A stretch of DNA of 62,093 nucleotides, the filler included. It is 6 parts of 6 records of this genome, joined end to end, with 100 filler letters (N's around TTAATTAATTAA, not from the genome) between each part and the next. Parts side by side here need not be neighbours in the genome. Positions count along the whole stretch, not along the records: positions 1 to 31,070 come from SRR31156797_43643; 5 more parts are not named here. One strand, written 5' to 3'. The notes under the pieces were generated by a model. It saw nothing but the letters and a program-made list of their open reading frames with translations. It made no database searches and had not been told where the DNA came from. Made by a program: the position numbers and the translations under genes. Below are positions 2,280 through 56,560 of this stretch, one piece after another. Within the stretch, counting starts at the first letter, position 1; each line of letters opens with the position of its first letter.

Positions 2280-5222
2280 CTACCAATCAATGGGCAATTT
2301 GACTTTCTGTCCCGCCTTATTCGTAAAAAACACATGCCCATGCTCTCGACCAAATAAATACACATCACGAGTCACCGCCACATCCTGCTGGCAATATTCA
2401 GTGATGAGATCAAGCCGCCCTTCCTGCCACCATTTGAGCGCCTGCAACCCATCGGCGGACTTGCCGACATCCAAGGTGGCCGATGCGATATTATCAAGCT
2501 TGAGGCGATAGCCAAGCCGGTTATGCACTTCCATGAGCAAATCAAGATTGGGCAATCCTCTGAAATGAAAAGGATTCAACCCGCCAAGCACGGCATAATC
2601 AAACTTCACATGGTTAAAACCGATAACAAGATCAAATTGTTGCAGATGTTCGACCAACTCGGGCATCTCATCCTGCTCATAATCATGCATGGCATCATCA
2701 TCCGAGTCATACACGCAGGCAATGGACACCCCCATACGGTCGGCACGTCCCCACCCCCCCACTTCGTCGGCGGAATAGCGAGTCTCAATGTCAATCACAC
2801 CATACCGCTTGGGCGCGGGCTTCTTCATGTCGATTCCGGGTAGAAGATTCACGTCTATCTCCTTTGGTTCGATTGATTTCGGATCGCCGGAGCGAATTGC
2901 TTCCAGCACAAACTGTGCGGCCCGTTTATCAATGGGTCGGTTGCCTGACCCACACTTGGGCGAATGCACGCAAGACGGACACCCCAGGTCGCACGGACAG
3001 TCAACAATGGTTTTAAGCGTTGTCTCGATCAACTCATCGGCACGCTCGAAAGCCTGTCGGGTCAGACCGGCTCCACCGGGCATGCCATCATAAATAAAAA
3101 CCGCCGGACCTTCCACCTGCGGATGCATGGGCGTGGAGATACCACCAAGATCATTGCGGTCGGTCATAACCAGCAACGGCAACATGCCGATAGCCGCATG
3201 TTCAAAGGCATGAATACCCCCCATGAAATGCAGGAACTCCTCCTCGCACCGACGACGGATGTCATGGCCCACCTCAAACCAAATGGCCTCGGTCTCGAAC
3301 ACTAACGGGGGTAAATCAAGCGGCATGATACCGAGCAGCTTTCCGCCACGTACGGAACGCTTTTCATAGCCAGTGATCTGCTCCGTAACCTTGACCCGCC
3401 CGAAGTAGACACGAGTTCCGAAACTCGCCTTCTGTCCAAGGACTTCCAGAATCTCGGTATCCTTACTCCCGCGAGGCTTGGTGTAGTAGCCCACTCGCTC
3501 CTTGCGAGCATGGACAGCACCCGCCCCCACATTGAGATCAGAAATGACATAGGTCTGGCCGCGATGCAGATAAACGGCACCGGGATGTGTTTCCCGAAAA
3601 GCCCGATGAGCGTCAATGGTTCCGATAACAGGCGCTTTTTCCCGAACCGACGAATTGTCCTCAATATGGAGTTGTTGACCTGCTCCACGCAAATCAACGT
3701 CCCGATGTGGCCGCTTGCGGCTGGAAACAACTTCTGCCGGATGACCTGACGTGTCAGGCTGCACCTCGTACAATTGACCAAAACCGATCAGCTCTTCCAC
3801 GCGCTTGCTGACAGGCTCCTCACGGAGAAAATCCTCGCCACGCCGCAAGGTCAATTCAGCGGCAGCGCAGATAAGATGCCGGTCCATAATCACCGGATTG
3901 TGCGGATTGAGCATGGCTGACTCTGGAGGTCGACTAAAAAAATCGTCCGGGTTGCGCATGAAGTATTGATCGAGAGCGTCTTCCTGCGCGATAAGCGCCA
4001 CCACGGAATCCTGCTGGCTCCGGCCCACGCGCCCACCGCGCTGCAACGTCGCCATGATTGAGCCGGGATAGCCGACCATAATACAGACATCCAGCCCACC
4101 GATGTCGATGCCGAGCTCAAGGGCCGAGGTGGAAATGACAGCCAGCAAATCGCCATCCGCCATTTTCGTTTCGATTTCGCGCCGCTCTTCAGGTAAAAAA
4201 CCGGCCCGGTATGCAGAAATTTTCTCTTTAAACTGCCCACTACGTTCTGTGGCCCACATGGAAATCAACTCGGTCATCTTGCGCGACTGGCAATAGACTA
4301 TGGTCCGCAAATCACGGGCCAATGCGGCCTGCAACAACTGAATGGCGGCCTGTGACGGGCTGCCGTCAGGATTAAGAAATACCATATGCCGCCCGCCACG
4401 CGCAGCCCCGGACTCAAGGATGGGATGCACTTCAAGATCCGTGAGCATATGACAAAGTTCAGCCGGATTGCCGATTGTCGCCGAACAAAACACAAAAGTC
4501 GGAGTGGCGCCATAATACCGGCAAAGCCGAAGTAATCGGCGGAAAACCATGGCCATATGCCCGCCCATGACACCTCGATAAGTGTGAACCTCATCCACCA
4601 CGATATGCGTCAAACCTGACAAGAATTCGGCCCAACTCGCGTGATACGGCAACATGGACAGATGGACCATTTCCGGGTTGGACATAATGACATTGGGCGG
4701 TGAATTACGGATCTTCTTACGAAAATGAGGCGTGGTGTCGCCGTCATAAATGGCGGCCGTAGGCCGATTATCCTCGGGCAACAAAGCAGCCAGTTCGTTG
4801 AATCCCTTGAGCTGGTCCTGCGCCAACGCCTTGAGCGGGAAAAGATACAGAGCCTTAGCTTCAGGGTCCGCCATGCACCGTTCCATGACCGGCAAGTTAT
4901 AGGTCAACGTCTTGCCGCTGGCTGTCGGCGTGGCAACCACAATATGGCGCCCGGCCCGAACATAATCAACGGCCTCGGCCTGATGCGCGTACAACTCATC
5001 CACACCGAGCAGGGAAAGCGCATTTTGCAAAGCCGCAGGCCACGGACGGCGCGGTTCACCCAAACGAGCCTCTGCACCATCCAGCATACGATGATGAGCT
5101 ATCTGATGGGCCATGCGCTCGGAATCGAGCATAGCCGCGACATATTCTGTGACAGGAGTTTCCACAGGTCGGATGGTAGTACGTGCAGCATCCCGAAGCA
5201 AGCCGTGAAATATACTTGCCAA
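2280..5222 (-). CDS. DEAD/DEAH helicase of the Hrq1/MrfA type with DUF1998 Zn site, fused to a C-terminal RNase H-like (MrfB/YprB-type) exonuclease; start uncertain, may be about 5168
   Basis: PTASGKT, DEVH, SAT, QRGGRVGR, CPCDLGCPSC; C-terminal DIET...FNHVKFD...YCQQDV. Confidence 0.9.
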   Translation of the reverse strand: MASIFHGLLRDAARTTIRPVETPVTEYVAAMLDSERMAHQIAHHRMLDGAEARLGEPRRPWPAALQNALSLLGVDELYAHQAEAVDYVRAGRHIVVATPTASGKTLTYNLPVMERCMADPEAKALYLFPLKALAQDQLKGFNELAALLPEDNRPTAAIYDGDTTPHFRKKIRNSPPNVIMSNPEMVHLSMLPYHASWAEFLSGLTHIVVDEVHTYRGVMGGHMAMVFRRLLRLCRYYGATPTFVFCSATIGNPAELCHMLTDLEVHPILESGAARGGRHMVFLNPDGSPSQAAIQLLQAALARDLRTIVYCQSRKMTELISMWATERSGQFKEKISAYRAGFLPEERREIETKMADGDLLAVISTSALELGIDIGGLDVCIMVGYPGSIMATLQRGGRVGRSQQDSVVALIAQEDALDQYFMRNPDDFFSRPPESAMLNPHNPVIMDRHLICAAAELTLRRGEDFLREEPVSKRVEELIGFGQLYEVQPDTSGHPAEVVSSRKRPHRDVDLRGAGQQLHIEDNSSVREKAPVIGTIDAHRAFRETHPGAVYLHRGQTYVISDLNVGAGAVHARKERVGYYTKPRGSKDTEILEVLGQKASFGTRVYFGRVKVTEQITGYEKRSVRGGKLLGIMPLDLPPLVFETEAIWFEVGHDIRRRCEEEFLHFMGGIHAFEHAAIGMLPLLVMTDRNDLGGISTPMHPQVEGPAVFIYDGMPGGAGLTRQAFERADELIETTLKTIVDCPCDLGCPSCVHSPKCGSGNRPIDKRAAQFVLEAIRSGDPKSIEPKEIDVNLLPGIDMKKPAPKRYGVIDIETRYSADEVGGWGRADRMGVSIACVYDSDDDAMHDYEQDEMPELVEHLQQFDLVIGFNHVKFDYAVLGGLNPFHFRGLPNLDLLMEVHNRLGYRLKLDNIASATLDVGKSADGLQALKWWQEGRLDLITEYCQQDVAVTRDVYLFGREHGHVFFTNKAGQKVKLPIDW

Positions 5223-5281
5223 GGACGTATTGTGGACGCATATTGTATGAAGGAACTAGAGTTTTACATACGGAGCAGCCT

Positions 5282-21282: not shown

Positions 21283-21540
21283 TCAGTGATTCTCTTCAAA
21301 CCCCTGTTCCGTCTTGTAGGTCTCCCATTCTTCATGGTCCACCGCGTTATCCGCGTTGGTATCAGCTTTCTCAAAAACAGCCAACTTTCCACTAGGAAAC
21401 GCAACCAAAAATTCACCTTTGGTGATGGTCCCATTCACATCCGCATCCAGAGAATTAAAGCAGACATTATAGTTTGTATTTGCTGAAACAGACTGGCTCG
21501 CAATAAGAACCAGCACAAAAGCTAGAAATATTTTCTTCAT
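21283..21540 (-). CDS. Small secreted EF-hand protein
   Basis: Signal peptide; DADVNGTITKGE and DTNADNAVDHEE loops. Confidence 0.8.
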   Translation of the reverse strand: MKKIFLAFVLVLIASQSVSANTNYNVCFNSLDADVNGTITKGEFLVAFPSGKLAVFEKADTNADNAVDHEEWETYKTEQGFEENH

Positions 21541-21562
21541 GTATTCTCCAAATATCATTACA

Positions 21563-21856
21563 TTACCCTTCAATAAAACCGGTCAAAACCTTAATCAGCT
21601 TATCCAAAGCTTCCTTTTCATCCGTTTCACCTTCCATGGCATCTGCATAGCACCGCAACATATACCGTTTCAAAATCAACTTGTTGGCGGATTGCAAGGC
21701 AGACCGAACAGCCCGGACCTGAACCAAAATATCCTGACATTCCTTGCCGGCCTCAATCATTCCTTGAATGCCGCGCACCTGCCCTTCGATCCGCTTCATA
21801 CGAGACAAAACGTTTTTTTTGATTTTCTGTTCTTCAACTGTTGCTGCTGATTCCAT
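21563..21856 (-). CDS. CsoR/RcnR family repressor, CstR-like (two Cys, no His ligand)
   Basis: RMKRIEGQVRGIQGMI...ECQDILVQVRAVRSAL...YMLRC. Confidence 0.88.
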   Translation of the reverse strand: MESAATVEEQKIKKNVLSRMKRIEGQVRGIQGMIEAGKECQDILVQVRAVRSALQSANKLILKRYMLRCYADAMEGETDEKEALDKLIKVLTGFIEG

Positions 21857-21906
21857 GTCATTCTCCTTGACTTCAGGGCAAGTTCCCGTTGCCGGGTCTC
21901 AAACTT

Positions 21907-21926
21907 TACCGTACTGTAGTACGGTA
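21907..21926. promoter_or_regulatory. Perfect palindrome in the divergent csoR/torD promoter, candidate CsoR-family operator
   Basis: TACCGTACT-GT-AGTACGGTA; contains two overlapping TAC-N9-GTA sites. Confidence 0.6.
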
Positions 21927-21954
21927 TAAATCACTGCCGACAAAAGGATCCAAA

Positions 21955-22569
21955 ATGTCCATATCTCAATCAAAACTTCATTTACTCAATGTATTGGAAC
22001 TGTGTGTCACCGTATTTCGTGGCCCTAATGTAGAAGAATGGGCCAATCTCGCCAAGGTTGGAGTGCCTGAACTCCTTGCCAGTGTCCAGAAAAACCCCGA
22101 CACCTTCCTCGCTCCGGTTCAATGCTTGAACCAATTGTCAGCAAATCTTTCGGATGAAGACATCTCAATTCTTGAGACCGAATATGTCCGCCTGTTCATT
22201 GCCGGCTCTGGAGGAGTTCCCGCCCCGCTGTATGAATCCTGCCATCTCGACACCACACCCCGAACCATGGGCCAGAGCGCCTTGGACATGCAAAGTCGTC
22301 TTCAGAAAGCCGGACTTGAAATGTCGTTAGACTCCAACGAGCCAGCCGACCACTTGACCATTGAACTCGAATTCCTCTTCTACTTACTCTCCGAAGGGTG
22401 GTTCGGACAAAAGGAACAAGCCGCTCAAGGCACCGAATTCGCAGAATCGATCATGCTTCCATGGGTACGCCGTTTCCGGGACGCACTGAACAAGGCCGCC
22501 CCACACCCTATATTCACCTGTGTCGCAGACCTCACAGTGACAACCTTGGAAACTGTTTCAAAGATCTAG
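21955..22569 (+). CDS. TorD/DmsD family molybdoenzyme maturation chaperone
   Basis: EYVRLFI...APLYES...EPADHLTIELEFL. Confidence 0.9.
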   Translation: MSISQSKLHLLNVLELCVTVFRGPNVEEWANLAKVGVPELLASVQKNPDTFLAPVQCLNQLSANLSDEDISILETEYVRLFIAGSGGVPAPLYESCHLDTTPRTMGQSALDMQSRLQKAGLEMSLDSNEPADHLTIELEFLFYLLSEGWFGQKEQAAQGTEFAESIMLPWVRRFRDALNKAAPHPIFTCVADLTVTTLETVSKI

Positions 22570-23576
22570 TCCAATTCTTCGGTTCGAATAACGGCTGACC
22601 GCAATACATCCAAAAATCTGGTGTCCGGTTCAAAATAGCCACGCCGGATCAATTCAATGGTCCAGTTACCATCACCCTCGGCCCGAACCAGATATGCCAA
22701 CGGCAATTCGGCCTGTCCGAGACATTCGAAGATCTGCCCGCTTTTATCCGAAAACAACGGGTAGGCCACATCATAATGTTTCTTGAAACGAACAACGGCA
22801 TGATTCGAATCATACACACCCAACCCAATGATCTTGAGTTGTCCGGCCAACACAGGATCATTCTCCACATCCTTGAAAAACCGCGAAAGCAACTTGGTTT
22901 CCCTCACGCAATCGTTGCACATGGTATTGTACAGTTGAATCAGCACAAAACGGGCGGACAATTCGGAAAGTTGCAACCATTTGGTTCCTTCCGGTAAATT
23001 CAAATACTCGCGATCCGCATCGCCATTCAACACCGCCACCCGACATGCCGGGAACGTATCGCCCACGGCCAGAATATGCTTTTCTTCCTGCACACCATCC
23101 ACGAGTTCGGGATATGCTTCTTTCCAGTCATGAAATCCCGCTGCATATCGATAAACATCAGTGTATCCGAGACGCGCTGCCCAGCGCGCCGCAATGCCAC
23201 TACGCAGTCACCTGAAACTTCGACAATACACCACCAACAAACGTTTTTGATCGTATCCGACCAAATCCTTGAATGCCGTCCGCTTGGCTTCTGGCAAATC
23301 CATCCGGTCGCCAAGATCAAATTCCATATTGATGGAACCGAAGATATGCCCGGCGGCAAATTCATAATCAGCTCGCGCATCGATAATAAGTGGTTTTGCG
23401 CCTGAATCAATCAACGCCTTCAACCCGCTGGTGTTGATGAGCTTATACCCTTCACGTTCGGCTTCACCCTGTGCAGCGGACCACCAAACTTCGTTTTCGT
23501 CGGCATTGGCGGGTGCACTCCAGAAAAAACATAAGGCGAGGAGCATATATACAATGGAAGATATCCGTATCATCAT
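22566..23576 (-). CDS. Predicted selenoprotein: exported rhodanese (CxxxxU) fused to a TlpA/thioredoxin-like CxxC domain, 336 aa, Sec at codon 123
   Basis: Track ORFs 23208-23576 and 22566-23102 are in one frame separated only by TGA 23210-23208; read-through gives YCRSFR-U-LRSGIAARWAARLGYTDVYRYAAGFHDWK, then TMCNDC. Confidence 0.85.
23171..23190 (-). promoter_or_regulatory. Candidate bacterial SECIS hairpin
   Basis: GGCGCGCU-GGGC-AGCGCGUC; G-starting apical loop 25 nt downstream of the UGA. Confidence 0.65.
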
Positions 23577-23640: not shown

Positions 23641-24738
23641 CTATTTATTTGGATGAACCTCGTAAGAATTGTCTTCACCAAAGTCATTGGTGGCTTCCAG
23701 ATAGAAGACATTCTTGGCATCAGGTACCATGTCCATAAACAGGTAATAAGCTTCGCCTGCTCGTGCGCCTGTGGCACAGGAGAATACGATAGGCTTGTCT
23801 GTCGGAATTTCCTTGGCCTTTTTCTCAACCATATCAACAGGCATGTTGATGGCGGAGGGGAAGTGACCGGCTGCGTATTCCTCAGGATCACGCACATCGA
23901 TCAGCAGAATGGAATCCGGGTTTTCCTTGATGGTCTTCAGGAACCATTCAGCATCGACTGCACCTTCAGCTTCACCGGCCTTGACGGCCACATCGGCACC
24001 ACCGAACATTTCCTTCCAACCGGGATAACCGGCTTCAGCAACCACAACTTTCTTGTAACCAAGGTAGCGGGCCTTGATTGCGGACTTGTGCGACAAGGCA
24101 CATTTGTAGCCGCCGCAATAGTAAACCAGTGTGACTTCAGCTTTATCAATTGGCAACATACCGCGCTTGTCGGCAAAGTCCTTTTCAGGAATGCCGATAG
24201 CGGACGGGATCGCGCCAGCCAGATACTTCTGGTACGGACGGGCGTCGATCAATGCGTATTTTTCGCCGTTGGCCATCTTGCCGTGGAGATTTTCCAGACC
24301 GATGGAGTAGTACAACGCGTGCTTCTTATAATCCGGAAAACCCGCGGCGTAGACATGGACGTTGGTATAGCCAAGCTTTTCTGCCTTCCAGGCCGCTTTA
24401 TGCGAAAGTCCGCAATGAAAACCACCACAATAGAAAATCAGAAGATCGTCCTTGTTGGCGGGCAACTTATCCACCATCTTGTCGAACTGGCTGGTCGGAA
24501 TGGACACAGCAGTCGGAATGTACCCATCGACATACTTCGGTTTGTATGGTCTGGAATCAACGATCATCGCGCCCTTGGGCTTGGGCATTTTGGCGTACTT
24601 GGCCACGAACTTGTAATCCACGATGGAGTGGAATTCCTTGAACTTCGGCTTCTTGGCTTCATCAGCCATTGCAACACCGGTTGTCGCCACCAGAGCGAAC
24701 ACCAGCATCATGACTGCGGCAAACAATTTCCTATACAT
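23641..24738 (-). CDS. Periplasmic triple-rhodanese sulfurtransferase
   Basis: Signal peptide; three rhodanese loops FYCGGFHCGLS, YYCGGYKCALS, FSCATGARA. Confidence 0.88.
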   Translation of the reverse strand: MYRKLFAAVMMLVFALVATTGVAMADEAKKPKFKEFHSIVDYKFVAKYAKMPKPKGAMIVDSRPYKPKYVDGYIPTAVSIPTSQFDKMVDKLPANKDDLLIFYCGGFHCGLSHKAAWKAEKLGYTNVHVYAAGFPDYKKHALYYSIGLENLHGKMANGEKYALIDARPYQKYLAGAIPSAIGIPEKDFADKRGMLPIDKAEVTLVYYCGGYKCALSHKSAIKARYLGYKKVVVAEAGYPGWKEMFGGADVAVKAGEAEGAVDAEWFLKTIKENPDSILLIDVRDPEEYAAGHFPSAINMPVDMVEKKAKEIPTDKPIVFSCATGARAGEAYYLFMDMVPDAKNVFYLEATNDFGEDNSYEVHPNK

Positions 24739-24819
24739 AACAAACTCCCTTCCTAAAGATTTGTTTGTGCTCTGCCCCGCATGGGACAAAGTCCTCTCTG
24801 ACACTATCGTTTCCGAGGC

Positions 24820-25539
24820 CTATTCACCCTCGGTTTTGACCTTTTCCCACCACAGACGGTGGTGATGTTTGGCATAGTTGCCGGGAACCACGCCGGTGAA
24901 CATGGACTTGAAACCGGGACGTTCTTCCGGCGAAATGGCGGCCATATAGATGTGAACCAGCAATCCGGCAAAAACCAGCCCCACGGCAATGAAATGCAGG
25001 GTCACGGCCCAACCGACCATGCCTGTGGACTCGGCCCCGAAAGTCCGGTCGGACATGAACATGATCACGCCGGTCACAGCGATAACAATGCCTCCCACAA
25101 CAGAGGCCTGAGCAAACGCCTTCTGGCCCATGTTGTAATATCCCTGATCCGGCAATTCAGGGTCCATGCCCATTATCTTGAGGGCCTTGGGGCCCAGCGT
25201 CATGAGCACCATTTTCTTGATCATCCACGCCATGTCACGCGCCGGACTGACGGCGAATACTTCTGCCAGAAAAAAACGGGCACCCTTGAAATTGACGAGA
25301 AGATAAAAAACGAACCCGGCCAGCCAAAGCAGACCGATAACTTCATGGATGACCAGCAGATTTGCCCCGCCGCCCACCATGGCACGCATAGCCTCGGGAT
25401 AGCCGGAACCAAACGGATCAATGGCCGGGTGCTGAATCAGCCCCACTCCTGTCAGCAGAAGCAGTAGCCAGCAGGCCGCGTTGAACCAATGAATGAATAT
25501 ATCGGTTTTATCGTGTCGTTTGAACATGGTGTTAGGCAT
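24820..25539 (-). CDS. Cytochrome b membrane anchor (FdnI/PhsC-like)
   Basis: Four TM helices with conserved His (HWFNA, HEVIG, HFIA, HIY) and YNMGQK. Confidence 0.88.
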   Translation of the reverse strand: MPNTMFKRHDKTDIFIHWFNAACWLLLLLTGVGLIQHPAIDPFGSGYPEAMRAMVGGGANLLVIHEVIGLLWLAGFVFYLLVNFKGARFFLAEVFAVSPARDMAWMIKKMVLMTLGPKALKIMGMDPELPDQGYYNMGQKAFAQASVVGGIVIAVTGVIMFMSDRTFGAESTGMVGWAVTLHFIAVGLVFAGLLVHIYMAAISPEERPGFKSMFTGVVPGNYAKHHHRLWWEKVKTEGE

Positions 25540-26272
25540 CGGAATCCTCCTTGTGGTCGGAATCGGAGCCGACAAACAGTTGACGGCCAAGCATGGCAAG
25601 CACGCCCAGACCGGACAGGGCCACGATACCCTTCACCAATGGTGCGGACTGCTTCATGGCGACCATGGATGCAGGAATGATGGCCTCTCGGCCCCATTCG
25701 CCCGGACCGGGGTTACCGAGATAAAACATATTCGGTTTGGTGTCGGTCTTGGCGGCCACGCGAGTCAGACGGTCCTTATTCTTAAGATACAGACGACCGG
25801 CTTCGCTGTCGGGATCATTGATATCGCCAAAGACCCGAGCCTTGGTGGGACAAGTGTCCACACATGCTGGGGGAATACCCGCGGCCCTGCGCTCGGGACA
25901 GTAATTACACTTATCCGCCTTGCGCTTGACCTCGTTACGGAAACGGGCGTCATAGGGACAGGCAGGAATACAGTTACCGCATCCAATACACAGCCCTTCG
26001 TTGATAACGACTTCGCCAGTTTCCTTATCCTTGTACGTCGCACCAGTGGGACAGGCATCCACACAGGTGGGGTTTTCGCAGTGCATACACGCGCCGGGCT
26101 GGAACCTGGCGGTATCGCTTTTTTTGCCGGGAACCGGCGTATCGTTGGTCGGTTTAATCCAATTGCGCCACTGCCCTTCAGGGACTTGGTTGGCTACCTT
26201 GCAGGCAGCCACACACGCTTTGCAGTCGATGCACTTGGCCGCATCAATAACCATCGCAAGTTGCTGTGCCAT
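25532..26272 (-). CDS. 4x[4Fe-4S] electron-transfer subunit (PsrB/PhsB-like)
   Basis: CIDCKACVAAC, CMHCENPTCVDACP, CIGCGNCIPACP, CNYC...CVDTCP; C-terminal TM segment. Confidence 0.93.
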   Translation of the reverse strand: MAQQLAMVIDAAKCIDCKACVAACKVANQVPEGQWRNWIKPTNDTPVPGKKSDTARFQPGACMHCENPTCVDACPTGATYKDKETGEVVINEGLCIGCGNCIPACPYDARFRNEVKRKADKCNYCPERRAAGIPPACVDTCPTKARVFGDINDPDSEAGRLYLKNKDRLTRVAAKTDTKPNMFYLGNPGPGEWGREAIIPASMVAMKQSAPLVKGIVALSGLGVLAMLGRQLFVGSDSDHKEDSDA

Positions 26273-28467
26273 TACGCCACCTTCCTTGTTACGGTGACAA
26301 AGGTCGTATGCATGGAAGCATTCCCTGTGATCGTGTCATAATCGTCATCCAACAATTCATTGATGGACGCGCCGTTGCCATGGGACAGGGTCTGCATGGT
26401 GGACAAAGTGTTGTAGCCCGAAAGCATGTACACCGTGTCTTTTCTAATTCTATCCGTCACTTCGGCCTTCAGTTCCTGCCTACCGACAGGGCTGGTCACT
26501 TCAACCAGATCACCGTCCGCAATGCCGAGCTTCCCAGCTGCTTCGATGTTGAGCCACAACGTATTGGTAGGATTCAACTCATTGAGCAACTTGTTGTTAA
26601 TGGTCGAAGTCTGGGTGACTGCGGCATCCCGGCCAAGCACCAGACGGAATTGATTTTTGGGAACCTTAGTGGGCGGGGTATAAATGGGCATGGGATCAAG
26701 CCCCATCTGTTCGTACCGCTGGTTGTACAGTTCCACCTTCTTGGACAAGGTCTTGTAAATCCGACCTTCATAAATGCCGTACACCTTGGACGGATTGTAG
26801 TAGACGCCGTCGCGATCCATGACCTCAAGGGCCTCCGGGATTTCACGAGTCTGCTTCTTGCGAAATTCCTCAATAGTGAAATCAAAATATTCACTGAGGT
26901 CCATCTTTCCGGCAATACCCTTCATAATGTCGAAGAGTGAACGGGATTCGTACAATGACTTGATGAGTGGGTCTCGTTTGACCACACAGGCACAAGCCAC
27001 AGAACCCTGCAAACCGGCACACGGATCAGTCCGCTCCAGATAACTCTGAGATGGCAAAACCAGATCGGCGTACCAAGCTGTGTCGGACATGGCGATATCC
27101 ACCACGGTGACAAAGTCCATCTTGTTCATCATCTCGATGGTCTTCTTCCGATTGGGAGCCGTGCCCATAGGGTTGGTCTTGTACACGAACCACCCCTTAA
27201 TGGGATATGGGTCCTCGGCCAATACGGAATCACGCGTGACCAGAAATGAACCTTCGTGCTCAAACATCATCGGCACCTTGTGGGCGTCGATACGATCGTC
27301 CTGATTCTCATCATACCATGGGGCGTCATACGACACGCCCTTGAGGCCAACCTGCCGAGCGGCCAACAGGCCACCGGGACGGTCCCAGTTGCCGAGCAAA
27401 CCATTCACAATGGCAAAACTACGACGAATCTGGGTGGAATCTTCATAATCCGAGGTCCGACGACCGGGATAAATCATGGCTGCCGGAGCGGCCGCTGCCA
27501 GCTCACGGGCCATACGGGTGATATCTTCTGCCGGAATGCCACACTCTTCTGCAGCAAAACCGGGGGTGTACTGCTTGACATGCTCAGCGAGCTGTTCAAG
27601 TCCGTATGTCTTCTCTTCGATCCACTGGGGGTCGTAAAGTTTTTCACCGATGATGACATGTGCCAGAGCGAGCATAAACGCCATGTCCGAACCGGGCCTG
27701 ATGGGATACCATTCGTCGGAAAGGGCCGCTGTCTTGGTATACCGAGGATCGAGCGTGACCAACTTGCACCCGTTCTCACGGATGGCGGTCATCAGATCAA
27801 TGGAATCCGGGGTGACCAAAGCTTCGAAGCGATTGGCACCTGCCATAATGATATACTTGGAGTTGAGCACGTCCGGGAACGGCACTTCTCCGTAGGTATC
27901 AAGAAACGCCCTGTTGCCCGAAACCAGACACAGTGATTCATGGGACGTGACATTAAACGAACCATAGACTTCGGCAAATCGGCCCACGAACTGAGAATGC
28001 AGATCAGTTCCGGCAGAGAAAAGATGACCGCAGGGGGTATACTTCTTGCGAACTTCTTCCATTTTCTGCGCGGCCATATCAATGGCTTCATCCCACGGGA
28101 TGCGCTGCCACTTGCCTTCGCCGCGTGCTCCCTTTCTGAGCAAGGGATGCTTGAGACGATCTGGATCATAGACTTGATCAAGACCGGCGTTACCGCGGGC
28201 ACATAACATGCCCCGCGACTTGAGAAATTTGGGATTGGGATCGAGCTTCTTGATGACCCCATTTTCAACGCGAGCGATAAGGCCACATTTATTGAAACAC
28301 ATGTCGCAGGCCGAAAACTTGGAGTCCCAAGCCGGGGCCGCAACGGAAGCCGCCTGCGCCTTTTTCAGACCACCCAGCAAAGCCGGACCGCCTACCGCCC
28401 CTGCCGCCACAAGGCCAGTAGCCTTGAAGAAATCACGACGAGACATTGTCTGTTTGGAATTCGACAC
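26272..28467 (-). CDS. Tat-exported molybdopterin oxidoreductase catalytic subunit, PsrA/PhsA/SrrA-like
   Basis: SRRDFFK Tat motif, CDMCFNKC..C cluster, SHESLC candidate Mo-ligand Cys; GGAGG RBS before GTG 28467. Confidence 0.9.
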   Translation of the reverse strand: MSNSKQTMSRRDFFKATGLVAAGAVGGPALLGGLKKAQAASVAAPAWDSKFSACDMCFNKCGLIARVENGVIKKLDPNPKFLKSRGMLCARGNAGLDQVYDPDRLKHPLLRKGARGEGKWQRIPWDEAIDMAAQKMEEVRKKYTPCGHLFSAGTDLHSQFVGRFAEVYGSFNVTSHESLCLVSGNRAFLDTYGEVPFPDVLNSKYIIMAGANRFEALVTPDSIDLMTAIRENGCKLVTLDPRYTKTAALSDEWYPIRPGSDMAFMLALAHVIIGEKLYDPQWIEEKTYGLEQLAEHVKQYTPGFAAEECGIPAEDITRMARELAAAAPAAMIYPGRRTSDYEDSTQIRRSFAIVNGLLGNWDRPGGLLAARQVGLKGVSYDAPWYDENQDDRIDAHKVPMMFEHEGSFLVTRDSVLAEDPYPIKGWFVYKTNPMGTAPNRKKTIEMMNKMDFVTVVDIAMSDTAWYADLVLPSQSYLERTDPCAGLQGSVACACVVKRDPLIKSLYESRSLFDIMKGIAGKMDLSEYFDFTIEEFRKKQTREIPEALEVMDRDGVYYNPSKVYGIYEGRIYKTLSKKVELYNQRYEQMGLDPMPIYTPPTKVPKNQFRLVLGRDAAVTQTSTINNKLLNELNPTNTLWLNIEAAGKLGIADGDLVEVTSPVGRQELKAEVTDRIRKDTVYMLSGYNTLSTMQTLSHGNGASINELLDDDYDTITGNASMHTTFVTVTRKVA

Positions 28468-28612
28468 TAAATACCTCCGGATATCCACCATTCTACCGTT
28501 GGTGTCACAACCTTTCCCCGACACCTCGCCACCCTCGGACGAGGTGTCGAAAAAAGTCTATTCAATACACGCTGAAACTTCAGATGCCACCATGGGCACC
28601 GAGAACATTCAA

Positions 28613-51946: not shown

Positions 51947-54900
51947 ATGTCAGTTGAAAAAGGCGGAAGAGCAACATGGCTCGGTGATTCATATGAACAA
52001 CTCTTCGCTACCGAAATAGCTTTAGATGTCATAACAGGTAAAGCTATTTCAATCCAGATGCAGCCAATAGGCGAAGATGAGAAAGGAGTAGACATTTGGA
52101 TAACATACCCCTTAAACAAGAAGGTTGCTGTCCAACTCAAACGTCAGCATCTCGAACAAGATTACTGGACACCTTCGGATTTAGAAAAAGAGAAAATCCT
52201 TTCTCACGCGAAATTTCAGCTAGAAAGAGATCCAAATTTTGAATTCTGGTTTGTATCATCATGCAAAGTTCAAACATTAAAAGATCTTCGCGATAGACTG
52301 AGACGAGTTGTACACGGACCTGATGAATTCTTAAAACACCATATCAATACACATCCGAAAAGAAAAAAAGCTTTTGAAATATTAATGAACGCTTGGGACT
52401 TGGATCCCCATAAACATATAGGCAAAGCGATCGAACTTCTTAGGAAGATTTCTTTTATTGTATATGACTATTCAAAATTCACTCGCGACCTCATCGAAAA
52501 CAGAACCAGCATACTCATTGAGGGCAATACTAACTCAATAGTTGCTTCAATCGGAGATTACTTATCTCAGAACATTGGAACAATCATTAACGCAACACTC
52601 CTACGGCAACATCTACGAGATAGTGGGTTTTCTTTTAGACAATTGGCTGGAGAACCCAGTCTTCAAGAAGGAATAGAAGACAATCAAGATAGATTTGCAA
52701 GAATTATTCGCAACAATTTGATAATGGAACAATCCATTACAAGGACTGAAACCACAACAATAATTGAAGCAATCAACTCTGAAGAACCTCCCCAACTAAT
52801 AATAGTCCACGGAGAAGCAGGCTGCGGAAAGAGTGTAGTACTATATCAGGTTTTTGAAAAACTTTTATTAGAAAACATACCAGTCCTACCTATTGACCTT
52901 AAAACCAGAAGACCAGAAGAAAAACCCGAATCCTATGGACAAAGGAAATGCAACTTACCGTCTTCTCCAGCCATCACCTTGGAATACGCAAGAGAACAAA
53001 AACATGCAGTATTGATTTATGATCAAATGGACTCGTTACGATATAACACAACTCACTCTGAGGAAATATGGAGCTACTTTCAAGACTTACTCAAAGAGTC
53101 TGTTACAAACAAAAACATCACAACCATAGTCGCTACAAGATCAATTGATTATGAGAACGATCCACATATTTCCGAAATCAAAAAAAACGTTAATCATTAT
53201 GGCGCAAAAAAACTAGAATTCAAAATTAATGATTTTGACAAAGAAGACGTCATTCATATTTTATCCACAAAAAAGTTGAACAAAGAGAATACTCCACATC
53301 ACCAAATAGAATTACTTAAAAAACCTTTTCTGTTACATATGTGGTTAGATTTATCAGAAAAACATAATAATATTTCTTTCACATCCTCTTCACAACTAAT
53401 AGATAAATATTTTACTGAGCTTTCAAACACAATCTCAAAAAAACTGAACCTCGATTTAGAAAAAGTCTGGAAATGCATAAACTCATTAAGCGAGTATTTG
53501 GATAGCAATGGCGTACCAGGAGCCAGTAGGCATTTTTTTGAAAGCGCAATAGACATCATACAAGAGTTAGCTATAAATGGCATTGTCTATTTAGAGGACA
53601 ATACGGTTTTCTTTTCACACCAAAGCTATCTTGATTATCTAGTAGCAAAAAAAGTTTTTATTGAATCCACAAACGAAGGAAGCACACCACAAGCCTGGTT
53701 ACTAAAAAAACAAGGCTTATTCAGACGTGAGCAGCTTCGCCAACTTCTCTATTTACTACGCGATTCGGAGCAGGAAAGATATGAAAACTTCCTCAGCGAT
53801 GTTCTTTTAAATCCTGAAACAAGATTTCACATCAAACACTTAATATGGGGATTCCTTAAACATGTTAACTCAATACGAATTCACGAGATTAATATCATAC
53901 GAAACAGCCTCACGAATTCATCTGAAAGAACTCATATCTTTGCACACATCTTAAATCATTCCACTGTTTGGTTTGATGCACTAAACACGCATGGTGTATT
54001 ACCAGACTTAATTGAGAAAGAAAAAAAAGACATTGGAATATCTAAGGAAAATATGTGGTTTCTCCAGACTATTACAAAAGACCGCCCAAATGAGGTAGAC
54101 AAACTTCTACAACCCTTCTGGAGAAACTGTGAACAATGGGAAGAGGAACTTATATCTTTTCTAACTTACGATCCAAACGAAGATTCCCCAGAAATGAAAC
54201 CTTTCCGATTAAAAATGCTTAACAAAGGAAGAATCAATCTTAGCTGGTACCATATTGAAGTACTGGCAAAAACACAGCCGGAATATGCATTTCAAATTGC
54301 TAAGGCGATTTTGGATCAATGGTTCAATTCACAGAAAAGCGAGTCTAAACCAAAATTCCTATTGTCACATTCTGAGGTCGATGACTTAACTGATTTCAGC
54401 AATGAAGTTAAAAAAAACAGTGCCTACTGCTGGAATCTATTCAGAGAAATCTATCTTGGAATAAAAAAAGAAAGCACCCAAAAACAATGGACATCAAAAG
54501 GAATCATACCAGACAATGATTACCTTTCAAAACCCGCGGAGACTTTCGTGGATCAGATAATGATGTCAGCACTTCAAGGTCTTGCAGCAACATTCCCTGC
54601 GTTATTTATTGAAAAAGTACAGAGTCTATCAGCTGATGAATTACCTTTTTTTGAATACAAAATCATGAAAAGCCTCGAAGTTGGTTGCTTCGATCTTGCA
54701 GACTTTGCAATTGATTGGGTTTGCAAAAAACAAATACGTTTTTCCTCAGGAAATAGTTCGCATGAAAATAAGTGGGATCCCGCTTGTAGGATAGTTAAGC
54801 GTTTTTCTACACACTGTTCTGAAGCAATCTACAATAATCTTGAGACCTTCATCTTGGGCTATCATGACGACTGGGAAATCAAAAGTGTCGAAATACAATT

Positions 54901-56560
54901 ACTTGACATACGCCGCGGGAGATTCACTGCGCCAAATGAATATGGAAGGGCGCAAAACCACCTACTTAACTCACTTCCTGAAGAAAGAAAAACGAAAGAC
55001 TGTACTGAACGGACCAAGTTATGGGTAAATAAATTTGGCAACCCAGGAGAAAACGAACACCCTCAACAGATGCAGCACATGAGAAGAATCCACTCACCAA
55101 TTCCGGCTGAAAGAGTGCATCTAGTAAGCGATAAGAACTGGATAGACATTTGCGCTCGCAATTGGCATGGCGAAAATGAGCAATGGAAAGATACTGGAAG
55201 GGAAACATACAGTGAATGCTCTTCACGTTTCTTTTCGGAATCCCTTGAAAGTGCAGCAAAGCTTGACCCAGTTAGATTTGCAAAGCTTGCAACCAGACTA
55301 CCCCAAAACGCAGATTCACAGTATTTTGCAGCCATAATCAGTGGGATTCACGATCACTTAAGACAAACTCCTTCAGAAAATGTTGACCCTATTTTCTCGG
55401 CCCAACTCGAACAAATAGCAGACCATTTATATGATGATGAATATAGCTATATTGTTAAGCGTTATTGCATGATAGTCGAAGAATTTGAAATCTTAGACTT
55501 TTCATCAACAATGCATGATCGTCTTATCAGGTTTTCTTCAAATCCCAACCCACTGCCAAATGAATACGCCGTCCACAGTTCGAATGGAGAAAATTCTAAA
55601 TCGGAACCCGACATTGCAGCTTCGGCAATTAATTGTGCACGTGGCGCTGTATCATCTGCAATAGCATCACTCCTATCAAGAAGACCTGAACTAATTCAAA
55701 CTTTTCTTCCAACAATAAGGAAATTACTTTTCGACAAGAATGCAGCTGTTCAACATGAAGCTTTCCGGCTATGCCTTGCAGTTTATAACCATGATGAAAC
55801 TCTTTCCATTGAACTGGCAATAAAAGCATCTGCAGAAGCTGAGGATGTCGCCCTTGAGAGTCATTGGTTACAAAACTTGATTGGTTACGCAAGATTTAGA
55901 CACATGAATGAATTAAACTCAATTATAATGCGAATGTTGAATTCAAAACGCAATGAACTTGCAAAGATGGGTGCTTTATGGAGCACTGTAAGATTTCTCG
56001 AAACAAAGGACGAACAAGACCTATTTAATCAATGCAAATCAGACAGCAAATCACACAGATCAGGAAAGACTGAAGCAGCTTTTGAACTATTTAGAAAAAA
56101 CAAGGAAACCGATGCCTCTGTTAAGATTCTTATTGAATGTTTCAATGATGAAGAAAAAGAAATTAGACGAATAGGTTCGAGAATATTTCTTTTGGAGAAT
56201 TTCTTTGACAAACCCAATAGCACAGAGTTGGCCATTCTTTATTCAAAATCAAGAGCTTTCTATGACGATCCTGATCTATTTCTTAATGAACTCGATTCAT
56301 CAACCGAAAGAATTCTAGAATATAGAGAATTGATTCTTCGAGTCCTTGACCAATATCTTGAACTAGATTTTGAAGAATGCGGCACAGCAAATTATCAATT
56401 CTTTGGTTTTGAAAACGACATCACCTCTCTTCTTTTCAAGTTATATAGACACGCATACACTGCAAGAAACAAAGAACTCCAGAACAAGTGCCTTGATCTC
56501 TGGGATGCATTACTTCAAAAAGGCGGGAGATTATCTCCAGAATTTATTGATTGCATATAG
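51947..56560 (+). CDS. Large nuclease-STAND NTPase with a helical-repeat C-terminus (Avs/AVAST-like defence protein)
   Basis: N-terminal YE...GVDIW...VQLK PD-(D/E)xK-like motif; Walker A GEAGCGKS; Walker B LIYDQMD; FSHQSYLDYL; long helical tail. Confidence 0.8.
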   Translation: MSVEKGGRATWLGDSYEQLFATEIALDVITGKAISIQMQPIGEDEKGVDIWITYPLNKKVAVQLKRQHLEQDYWTPSDLEKEKILSHAKFQLERDPNFEFWFVSSCKVQTLKDLRDRLRRVVHGPDEFLKHHINTHPKRKKAFEILMNAWDLDPHKHIGKAIELLRKISFIVYDYSKFTRDLIENRTSILIEGNTNSIVASIGDYLSQNIGTIINATLLRQHLRDSGFSFRQLAGEPSLQEGIEDNQDRFARIIRNNLIMEQSITRTETTTIIEAINSEEPPQLIIVHGEAGCGKSVVLYQVFEKLLLENIPVLPIDLKTRRPEEKPESYGQRKCNLPSSPAITLEYAREQKHAVLIYDQMDSLRYNTTHSEEIWSYFQDLLKESVTNKNITTIVATRSIDYENDPHISEIKKNVNHYGAKKLEFKINDFDKEDVIHILSTKKLNKENTPHHQIELLKKPFLLHMWLDLSEKHNNISFTSSSQLIDKYFTELSNTISKKLNLDLEKVWKCINSLSEYLDSNGVPGASRHFFESAIDIIQELAINGIVYLEDNTVFFSHQSYLDYLVAKKVFIESTNEGSTPQAWLLKKQGLFRREQLRQLLYLLRDSEQERYENFLSDVLLNPETRFHIKHLIWGFLKHVNSIRIHEINIIRNSLTNSSERTHIFAHILNHSTVWFDALNTHGVLPDLIEKEKKDIGISKENMWFLQTITKDRPNEVDKLLQPFWRNCEQWEEELISFLTYDPNEDSPEMKPFRLKMLNKGRINLSWYHIEVLAKTQPEYAFQIAKAILDQWFNSQKSESKPKFLLSHSEVDDLTDFSNEVKKNSAYCWNLFREIYLGIKKESTQKQWTSKGIIPDNDYLSKPAETFVDQIMMSALQGLAATFPALFIEKVQSLSADELPFFEYKIMKSLEVGCFDLADFAIDWVCKKQIRFSSGNSSHENKWDPACRIVKRFSTHCSEAIYNNLETFILGYHDDWEIKSVEIQLLDIRRGRFTAPNEYGRAQNHLLNSLPEERKTKDCTERTKLWVNKFGNPGENEHPQQMQHMRRIHSPIPAERVHLVSDKNWIDICARNWHGENEQWKDTGRETYSECSSRFFSESLESAAKLDPVRFAKLATRLPQNADSQYFAAIISGIHDHLRQTPSENVDPIFSAQLEQIADHLYDDEYSYIVKRYCMIVEEFEILDFSSTMHDRLIRFSSNPNPLPNEYAVHSSNGENSKSEPDIAASAINCARGAVSSAIASLLSRRPELIQTFLPTIRKLLFDKNAAVQHEAFRLCLAVYNHDETLSIELAIKASAEAEDVALESHWLQNLIGYARFRHMNELNSIIMRMLNSKRNELAKMGALWSTVRFLETKDEQDLFNQCKSDSKSHRSGKTEAAFELFRKNKETDASVKILIECFNDEEKEIRRIGSRIFLLENFFDKPNSTELAILYSKSRAFYDDPDLFLNELDSSTERILEYRELILRVLDQYLELDFEECGTANYQFFGFENDITSLLFKLYRHAYTARNKELQNKCLDLWDALLQKGGRLSPEFIDCI

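Follow-up and report, generated by a model that had tools for sequence, protein, structure and literature searches.

A stretch of DNA of 62,093 nucleotides, filler included (hereafter the window), joined from six parts of six records of one genome, of which positions 1 to 31,070 come from SRR31156797_43643, carries on its minus strand two neighbouring open reading frames (ORFs) that translation table 11 calls as separate genes: one of 122 residues at 23208-23576, which ends in VVYCRSFR, and one of 178 residues at 22566-23102, which begins with GTG. The question raised by this locus is whether the TGA that closes the first ORF ends a protein or is decoded as selenocysteine (Sec) within a longer one. 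We consider it highly likely that the UGA at 23210-23208 is a Sec codon and that the locus encodes a single exported selenoprotein of 336 residues, the last gene of a conserved five-gene periplasmic sulfur-reduction operon. Within this reading, a genuine Sec protein is predicted from sequence with greater confidence still, a partnership of this protein with the Phs-like enzyme on sulfane sulfur is rather likely, and a specific Cys-Sec-CxxC relay, proposed by analogy, is tentative.

Translated with read-through, positions 22566-23576 form one 336-codon frame plus stop with a single internal TGA at codon 123, as claimed in the original prediction, which had been made from the letters of the window. 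The rhodanese domain continues unbroken across this TGA, with a Pfam Rhodanese match at residues 52-154 that covers profile positions 5-102 of 102, in agreement with the earlier view that the first ORF stops in the middle of the active-site loop and that read-through restores the rest of the domain. Alignment also places U123 opposite the second cysteine of YCGGFHC and YCGGYKC, the loops of the adjoining triple-rhodanese gene, the position to which the UGA had already been assigned. The nearest complete genome, G001, which shares 31% of 31-mers with the window, contains an orthologue with 99% protein identity and the same TGA. In contigs from three runs, each belonging to a different study, positions 23208-23210 show no change among the differences listed (13 further ones being unlisted), and these contigs do differ from the window nearby, for example at 23202 and 23240. 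Because G001 has the same TGA at this level of protein identity and the three-run contigs agree, the base-call error that had been named as a possible refutation is excluded.

More decisive than the paralogous loops is what relatives carry at codon 123. In a genus-level alignment of 31 rows, consisting of the window copy and 30 loci, 26 rows have TGA and 5 have TGC without any shift of column, the codon being preceded by YCR[SN][FI][RS] and followed by [LVI]R. The named species-representative genomes yielded 57 loci, 50 of them two-domain, with TGA in 33/50, TGC in 17/50 and nothing else, which accords with the expectation that orthologues would carry TGA or a cysteine codon and not Trp, Arg or Gly; the seven remaining loci, which are not two-domain, comprise five with TGA, one with TGC and one distant rhodanese with GGA. 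Two-domain matches occurred in 37 of 61 relatives' genomes, with exactly one TGA in 30 and no stop in 7. A sample of 401 genomes of the same taxonomic order gave 75 genomes matching at E <= 1e-30 and, as counted from the table of matches, 55 two-domain places, of which 48 contain a single TGA and 7 no TGA, plus 21 rhodanese-only places (19 with TGA). The column is used in the same way in one family outside the order (6 loci, L070-L075). The column position of the TGA was verified for the extracted loci. Because the genome collections share members and the species are kin to one another, the counts do not represent independent samples. Since TGA alternates only with Cys at this codon, which is the signature of Sec sites, the codon is best read as Sec.

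Judged by record title, the family is carried by, among others, Pseudodesulfovibrio, Desulfovibrio caledoniensis, Salidesulfovibrio, Maridesulfovibrio, Halodesulfovibrio, Oleidesulfovibrio, Desulfonatronum, Desulfarculaceae, Desulfocarbo, strain NaphS2, metagenome-assembled genomes (MAGs) of Syntrophobacterales and Desulfobacteraceae, and one Dehalococcoidia MAG. Protein identity among these relatives falls to 35-45% with the frame intact on either side of the TGA, suggesting that selection acts on the read-through product. Six positions, at the UGA codon and on both sides of it, are invariant in 29 aligned sequences, namely C118, R119, C/U123, C220, C223 and P292. A TGA-bearing rhodanese match from another taxonomic order (L081) was rejected, as its loop has Cys and its TGA is the terminal stop. 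Separately, one rhodanese-only copy (L065, G045:C18, ~4995-5246) contains an in-frame TAA in addition to the loop TGA and adjoins fragmentary PhsA and PhsC matches, and is probably a decaying copy of the operon.

The machinery for Sec decoding, the presence of which the original prediction had proposed to check, was found in G001, where profile searches matched selA (615 bits, cut-off 268), selB (398 bits, cut-off 242), tRNA-Sec, that is selC (81.8 bits, cut-off 47), and selD (G001:C1:3423424-3424353, 341.6 bits, cut-off 125), each above its cut-off. The selD gene itself contains one in-frame TGA and is, to judge by its sequence, a Sec-containing selenophosphate synthetase, thereby providing an internal positive control for Sec decoding in the lineage.

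A hairpin lies downstream of the UGA. In the available part of a 2026 review, the model of the bacterial Sec insertion sequence (bSECIS) is given as a loop of 3-9 nt that has G in the two positions at its start, a stem no shorter than 4 bp, a stability of <= -7.5 kcal/mol and a spacing of 16-37 nt from UGA to loop (PMC13188914). The window hairpin, with the core stem-loop GCGCGCU-GGGC-AGCGCGU, fits these rules, and a rule-fitting hairpin of <= -7.5 kcal/mol is found in 34/36 TGA rows, the exceptions being L035 (-6.4) and L063 (-3.7). In three species, four synonymous changes produce a hairpin whose register is shifted (loop GGU or GUU), and a second family uses a different stem, CCUGGGC-CGUGC-GCCUGGG. 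Across 27 sequences, 89.5% of the cells of the register-A helix are paired, as against 28-55% in slid controls, and two pairs show compensatory changes, one of which passes from G-C through G.U to A-U by way of non-synonymous R-to-H plus A-to-V replacements; the covariation score of this helix was reached by 6/500 shuffles. As a control, the downstream codons were replaced by synonyms drawn from the codon usage of the gene in question; compared with the mean of these recodings, the real hairpin was more stable in 25/26 TGA rows and in 1/5 Cys rows.

The predicted protein begins with a putative signal peptide of the Sec type (general secretory pathway), for which the AlphaFold2 (AF2) model shows a helix at residues 3-18 and low confidence at residues 22-25, and in which the A-x-A pattern is kept in orthologues. 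The rhodanese domain that follows is closest by sequence, among solved structures, to TSTD1 (6bev). For the C-terminal domain, which had been described as a CxxC thioredoxin-like domain, Foldseek returned ResA (1su9_B, E 8.9e-9, TM score 0.78 on the target) as the best match and phmmer matched ResA at E 7.7e-8, thereby refining the assignment to the ResA/CcmG type. The phmmer alignment sets the LP of 'elplayl' on ResA 'plpttfl', with P292 on the cis-Pro loop. A form from Maridesulfovibrio sp. FT414 (L134:301-1197) retains YCRSFRU, and its C-terminal domain is without CxxC (LLVAEGHAENSQ); in this form the partner domain seems to have lost its redox motif while the Sec-rhodanese persisted.

The predicted fusion gene is the fifth and last in the gene order PhsA-PhsB-PhsC-triple rhodanese-fusion gene (Table 1), which is kept in 8/8 loci from other families of the same taxonomic order (L056-L063) and in 6/6 loci of the family outside it (L070-L075). 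All 29 genus loci have a rhodanese neighbour beside the fusion gene, and the rhodanese-only form L063 keeps the same operon place, so the adjacency to a molybdoenzyme described in the original prediction is a linkage maintained across families.

Table 1 Features of the predicted selenoprotein gene and its neighbours (positions along the window).
Feature	Position	Strand	Evidence or remark
Whole gene, predicted exported Sec-rhodanese / thioredoxin-like fusion	22566..23576	-	One UGA read through; orthologues of equal length and frame
N-terminal signal peptide, ~residues 1-24	23505..23576	-	Hydrophobic helix then ANA/DE, the slash marking the cleavage site, placed by eye
Rhodanese domain, residues 52-154	23115..23423	-	Pfam PF00581, E 1.7e-16, 61 bits vs cut-off 22.2
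Active-site loop C118-R-S-F-R-U123	23208..23225	-	C118 is the canonical rhodanese Cys; U123 at +5
In-frame UGA, codon 123, putatively read as selenocysteine	23208..23210	-	TGA or TGC in every two-domain relative examined
SECIS-like hairpin UUGCGGCGCGCU-GGGC-AGCGCGUCUCGG	23167..23194	-	4-nt G-starting loop 25 nt after UGA, -13.8 kcal/mol
Thioredoxin-fold domain, ResA/CcmG/TlpA type, residues 171-336	22569..23066	-	Pfam AhpC-TSA 198-289, Redoxin 171-290
C220-N-D-C223 redox motif	22908..22919	-	Aligns with C-E-P-C of ResA
Triple-rhodanese exported protein, upstream	23641..24804	-	Two of three domains with CxxxxC loops (YCGGFHC, YCGGYKC)
Cytochrome b membrane subunit, PhsC/FdnI-like	24820..25599	-	Pfam Ni_hydr_CYTB, E 3.2e-19
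Four-cluster Fe-S subunit, PhsB/TtrB/NrfC-like	25532..26272	-	Profile matches
Molybdopterin oxidoreductase exported by twin-arginine translocation (Tat)	26272..28524	-	Pfam matches, Tat signal; best NCBIfam match is thiosulfate reductase PhsA
TorD/DmsD-type Tat chaperone	21889..22569	+	Downstream of the fusion gene and convergent with it; stays adjacent in relatives
CsoR/RcnR-family repressor, two Cys	21563..21856	-	Downstream of the fusion gene; adjoins the operon in several relatives

In rhodanese chemistry, the catalytic cysteine carries a persulfide. By analogy with rhodaneses, Cys118 of the predicted protein would accept sulfane sulfur, supplied by thiosulfate or polysulfide, and carry it as a persulfide, which the Sec123 selenolate, favourably located five residues on in the same loop, would then attack, so that sulfide would be released or the sulfur passed on and a Cys-S-Se-Sec bond would be left behind. 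The tethered ResA-like CxxC domain could reduce this bond and would in turn receive electrons from the cytoplasm through a DsbD/CcdA-type membrane protein whose gene lies elsewhere. Such a relay has a parallel in TsoB, in which a single chain combines a Sec-rhodanese with a DsbD membrane domain and a thioredoxin domain. Both the built-in reductase domain and the service to the molybdoenzyme had been put forward in the original prediction as inferences, and they keep that standing here. We further speculate, as a doubtful extension, that the protein might represent a new rhodanese catalytic design, in which the selenolate serves as a built-in resolving nucleophile and together with the tethered CxxC converts a sulfur carrier into a periplasmic selenium-dependent persulfide/polysulfide (or thiosulfate) reductase, which would remove sulfane sulfur at the PhsA-type respiratory enzyme or deliver it there.

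Several observations weigh against this reading, some against Sec decoding and others against the proposed function. The Sec machinery was demonstrated for the close relative G001 only. The 86-nt fold after the UGA is not more stable than its shuffles (z = -0.06), recodings at least as stable as the observed hairpin make up a fraction of 0.04-0.31 in 25/26 TGA rows and 0.66 in L035, and 5/7 Cys rows also have a rule-fitting hairpin of <= -7.5 kcal/mol, so that the rules are of low specificity here. The hairpin is weaker evidence than it looks because the self-complementary GC-rich codons of the AARWAAR peptide form hairpins almost whatever codons are used. Of the earlier hairpin claim, the G-starting loop 25 nt after the UGA therefore stands and the evidential weight placed on it does not: the hairpin is compatible with the Sec reading and mildly supportive, not decisive. 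In a small share of one RNA run (X16), matches fell on parts of the triple-rhodanese gene only and none on the fusion gene, a result that is uninformative on expression. As to function, the Mo subunit scored 525.8 bits against the PhsA model NF012032, below the cut-off of 694, and thus gives no firm assignment of a substrate. There is no DsbD/CcdA gene within the operon, and the two DsbD_TM genes of G001 lie elsewhere. The AF2 model, with a mean predicted local distance difference test (pLDDT) score of 85.5 and a predicted template modelling (pTM) score of 0.53, does not bring the domains into contact with any confidence, and since the Maridesulfovibrio form has Sec and no CxxC, the tethered-reductase step is not universal. 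Finally, genomes with the Cys form keep selA in 5/5 cases and so give no link between the Cys form and loss of the Sec trait, an observation listed on this side and weighed as neutral; it indicates that the Cys forms are local replacements and not a by-product of trait loss.

The alternative that survives best accepts a real selenoprotein and questions its task. The protein might be no sulfane-sulfur shuttle of the Mo enzyme but a self-sufficient periplasmic thiosulfate:thiol sulfurtransferase or polysulfide reductase, or might serve the protection or repair of periplasmic thiols, or the handling of selenium, arsenic or another chalcogen, and be merely co-regulated with the operon. Rhodanese-only Sec forms and the CxxC-less form exist, suggesting that the module can operate in several contexts; TsoB is encoded in other operons, as far as the accessible text of the review indicates (PMC13188914), and rhodaneses of E. 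coli use thiosulfate as a substrate with thiols as acceptors, according to the consulted portion of another report (PMC2593051). Against such independence, the gene directly follows the phsABC-like genes and the triple rhodanese at all flanks examined (8/8 and 6/6, with a rhodanese neighbour in 29/29), and even the rhodanese-only L063 keeps its place in the operon. We regard an independent role as unlikely, with enough in its favour to be kept in view beside the preferred partnership with the Phs-like enzyme.

A second alternative takes the TGA as a true stop, which would leave a truncated rhodanese of 122 residues and a separate cytoplasmic redoxin from an internal start, and this is how public annotation presents the family. 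Full-length public records are Cys forms only, named 'rhodanese-like domain-containing protein', whereas in NCBI the TGA forms go under the names 'redoxin domain-containing protein' or 'peroxiredoxin', at 196-203 aa. A search of 1.84 billion cluster representatives gave 2040 matches at E <= 1e-3, 22 of them at E <= 1e-30; among the best 150 of the 2040, 45 break off after YCxxxx, so that the Sec codon would come next, and a further 43, of 180-230 aa, represent the downstream part, some of them starting one or two codons past the Sec codon. These records, together with the unexceptional fold of the region, are what a true stop has in its favour. Yet the first piece would break off within the active-site loop, without the domain's final strand and helix. 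The stretch between the UGA and any possible start, 12 codons or more, is conserved in all relatives with its frame kept, and start calls vary between records. The ResA/CcmG fold class is extracytoplasmic, and the downstream piece has no signal peptide. Moreover, 17/50 relatives have Cys at the codon and there make one protein. A true stop is thus very improbable, and the annotation more readily reflects a selenoprotein gene cut in two by gene callers, with the consequence that selenoproteome counts and operon models are wrong here for many sulfate reducers and their relatives.

A third alternative retains read-through and dispenses with SelB and tRNA-Sec, in that a near-cognate tRNA for Trp or Cys, or read-through at a low level, would yield an inefficiently made Cys or Trp protein. 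A UGA followed by C is a leaky context, and the hairpin is not statistically distinctive, both of which speak for this possibility. By contrast, the Sec machinery is complete where it was checked (G001), TGA alternates solely with Cys, curated TsoB has Sec at the homologous position of its loop, and the hairpin is kept with compensatory changes in the TGA forms, so that near-cognate read-through appears slightly more improbable even than a true stop. A sequencing error or a decaying pseudogene, for which nothing speaks beyond the bare presence of a stop codon, has a negligible chance and is already refuted: the same TGA recurs in a complete genome obtained independently, in the three-run contigs and in dozens of species, and the sequence to either side of it is strongly conserved.

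How the predicted selenoprotein relates to known proteins can be judged best from TsoB. The best NCBIfam match of the fusion protein is the TsoB model NF045694, with 101.4 bits against a cut-off of 805 and over residues 6-154 only, whereas genuine TsoB genes in two relatives score 971.5 bits (L066:3723-5474, minus strand) and 926.6 bits (L067:3729-5465, minus strand). The rhodanese domains of TsoB and the fusion protein share 32% identity (E 3e-22), with YUDGLAUVRS facing YCRSFRULRS. The two proteins are alike in their homologous exported N-terminal rhodanese, in which the first Sec of TsoB falls on C118 and the second on U123, and in joining a Sec-rhodanese to thiol-disulfide electron-transfer machinery, the function of both being predicted. 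They differ in that TsoB has two Sec residues (UxxxxU, YUDGLAU), a DsbD membrane domain (257 bits), a thioredoxin domain with WCAPC and a length of ~580 aa, whereas the fusion protein has one Sec in CxxxxU, no DsbD or transmembrane match, a ResA-type domain with CNDC, 336 aa and a phsABC-like operon. On these comparisons the fusion protein is a relative of the TsoB N-terminal domain and not TsoB itself. The genomes of L066 and L067, which belong to the same taxonomic order, hold the CxxxxU family and the UxxxxU TsoB together, and the surrounding read-through frames contain further TGA codons. The first two domains of the triple rhodanese also match the rhodanese part of the TsoB model, at 92.9 bits, as all-Cys cousins of the Sec loop.

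Sec-rhodaneses as such are not new. The part of the 2026 review open to us lists five forms, namely UxxS, UxxG, CxU (NF041203), UxxG and the UxxxxU of TsoB (NF045694), and names a 'three selenoprotein operon' for TsoB, which therefore occurs in other operons (PMC13188914). Deltaproteobacterial Sec-rhodaneses have been known since 2007, when a 'rhodanese-related sulfurtransferase' of symbionts was included, as the pertinent section of that paper records (PMC1976440), and the statement in the original prediction that they are reported in deltaproteobacteria is thus correct. The other Sec-rhodanese forms resemble the present one in their rhodanese fold, in a Sec in or near the active-site loop and in their deltaproteobacterial origin, and differ in that none is described as fused to a redoxin in the available portions of these two papers (PMC13188914, PMC1976440). 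Membership in the CxU family NF041203 is not indicated, with 24.3 bits against a cut-off of 115 and the motif CxxxxU instead. As U-L-R-S can also be read as UxxS, the first form of the review, a Geobacter record, might share the Sec site, a comparison made by motif description only. A polysulfide reductase that depends on Sec but has another fold was reported only in 2026, as far as the accessible part of that report shows (PMC13510729). Rhodanese is not mentioned in the BSepDB and deep-Sep papers. No literature description of a rhodanese-redoxin selenoprotein was found in a search that left most subscription journals and supplements outside its reach and is thus not proof of unpublished status. 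The original prediction, which knew of no characterised example of the fusion, is matched to that extent by our search, and it had left the close relative TsoB unnamed.

The C-terminal domain shares its fold, the position of its CxxC and the cis-Pro with ResA/CcmG/TlpA proteins. Proteins of this class are extracytoplasmic reductants that are kept reduced by CcdA or DsbD. With 42.6 bits against the ResA cut-off of 170 and CNDC in place of CEPC, the domain belongs to the same fold class and is not a ResA orthologue; unlike those proteins, it is fused to a rhodanese and not membrane-anchored for cytochrome c maturation. On the rhodanese side, Sud of Wolinella is a periplasmic single-domain rhodanese that serves a Mo enzyme of the PhsA/PsrA type. 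Sud and PspE resemble the predicted protein as periplasmic rhodaneses encoded with, or serving, such a polysulfide or thiosulfate reductase (Psr, Phs), whereas their catalytic Cys is a single one and both Sec and a redoxin domain are absent. The periplasmic location of PspE is stated in the portion of the E. coli work consulted (PMC2593051).

Taking these comparisons together, the family, as far as its sequences tell, is widespread in Desulfobacterota and systematically mis-annotated, and its kind, the Sec-rhodanese, is known, with TsoB as the nearest relative. The locus would place Sec in the active-site loop of a predicted periplasmic sulfurtransferase, inside a conserved operon of the thiosulfate/polysulfide-reductase type. 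If the speculative catalytic design were true, the CxxxxU/C rhodanese family, standing alone, with a redoxin or, in TsoB, with DsbD, would constitute a widespread and overlooked connection of selenium to the dissimilatory sulfur metabolism of Desulfobacterota. The natural Cys variants (17/50 loci), the CxxC-less variant and the two-Sec TsoB offer a comparative series for the contribution of Sec to persulfide chemistry.

Some further genes of the window deserve mention. The CsoR-family repressor beside the operon carries a tyrosine at the position of the histidine of copper-sensing CsoR, a pattern that we take to be that of persulfide-sensing CstR, and may be a sulfane-sulfur-responsive regulator of the operon. 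A 1537-aa ORF at 51947-56560 on the plus strand matched no Pfam family at E <= 1e-5. Adjoining the repressor, a small exported EF-hand protein of 96 aa (21283-21573, minus strand) gave a weak lanmodulin-like match of 20.3 bits against a cut-off of 135.

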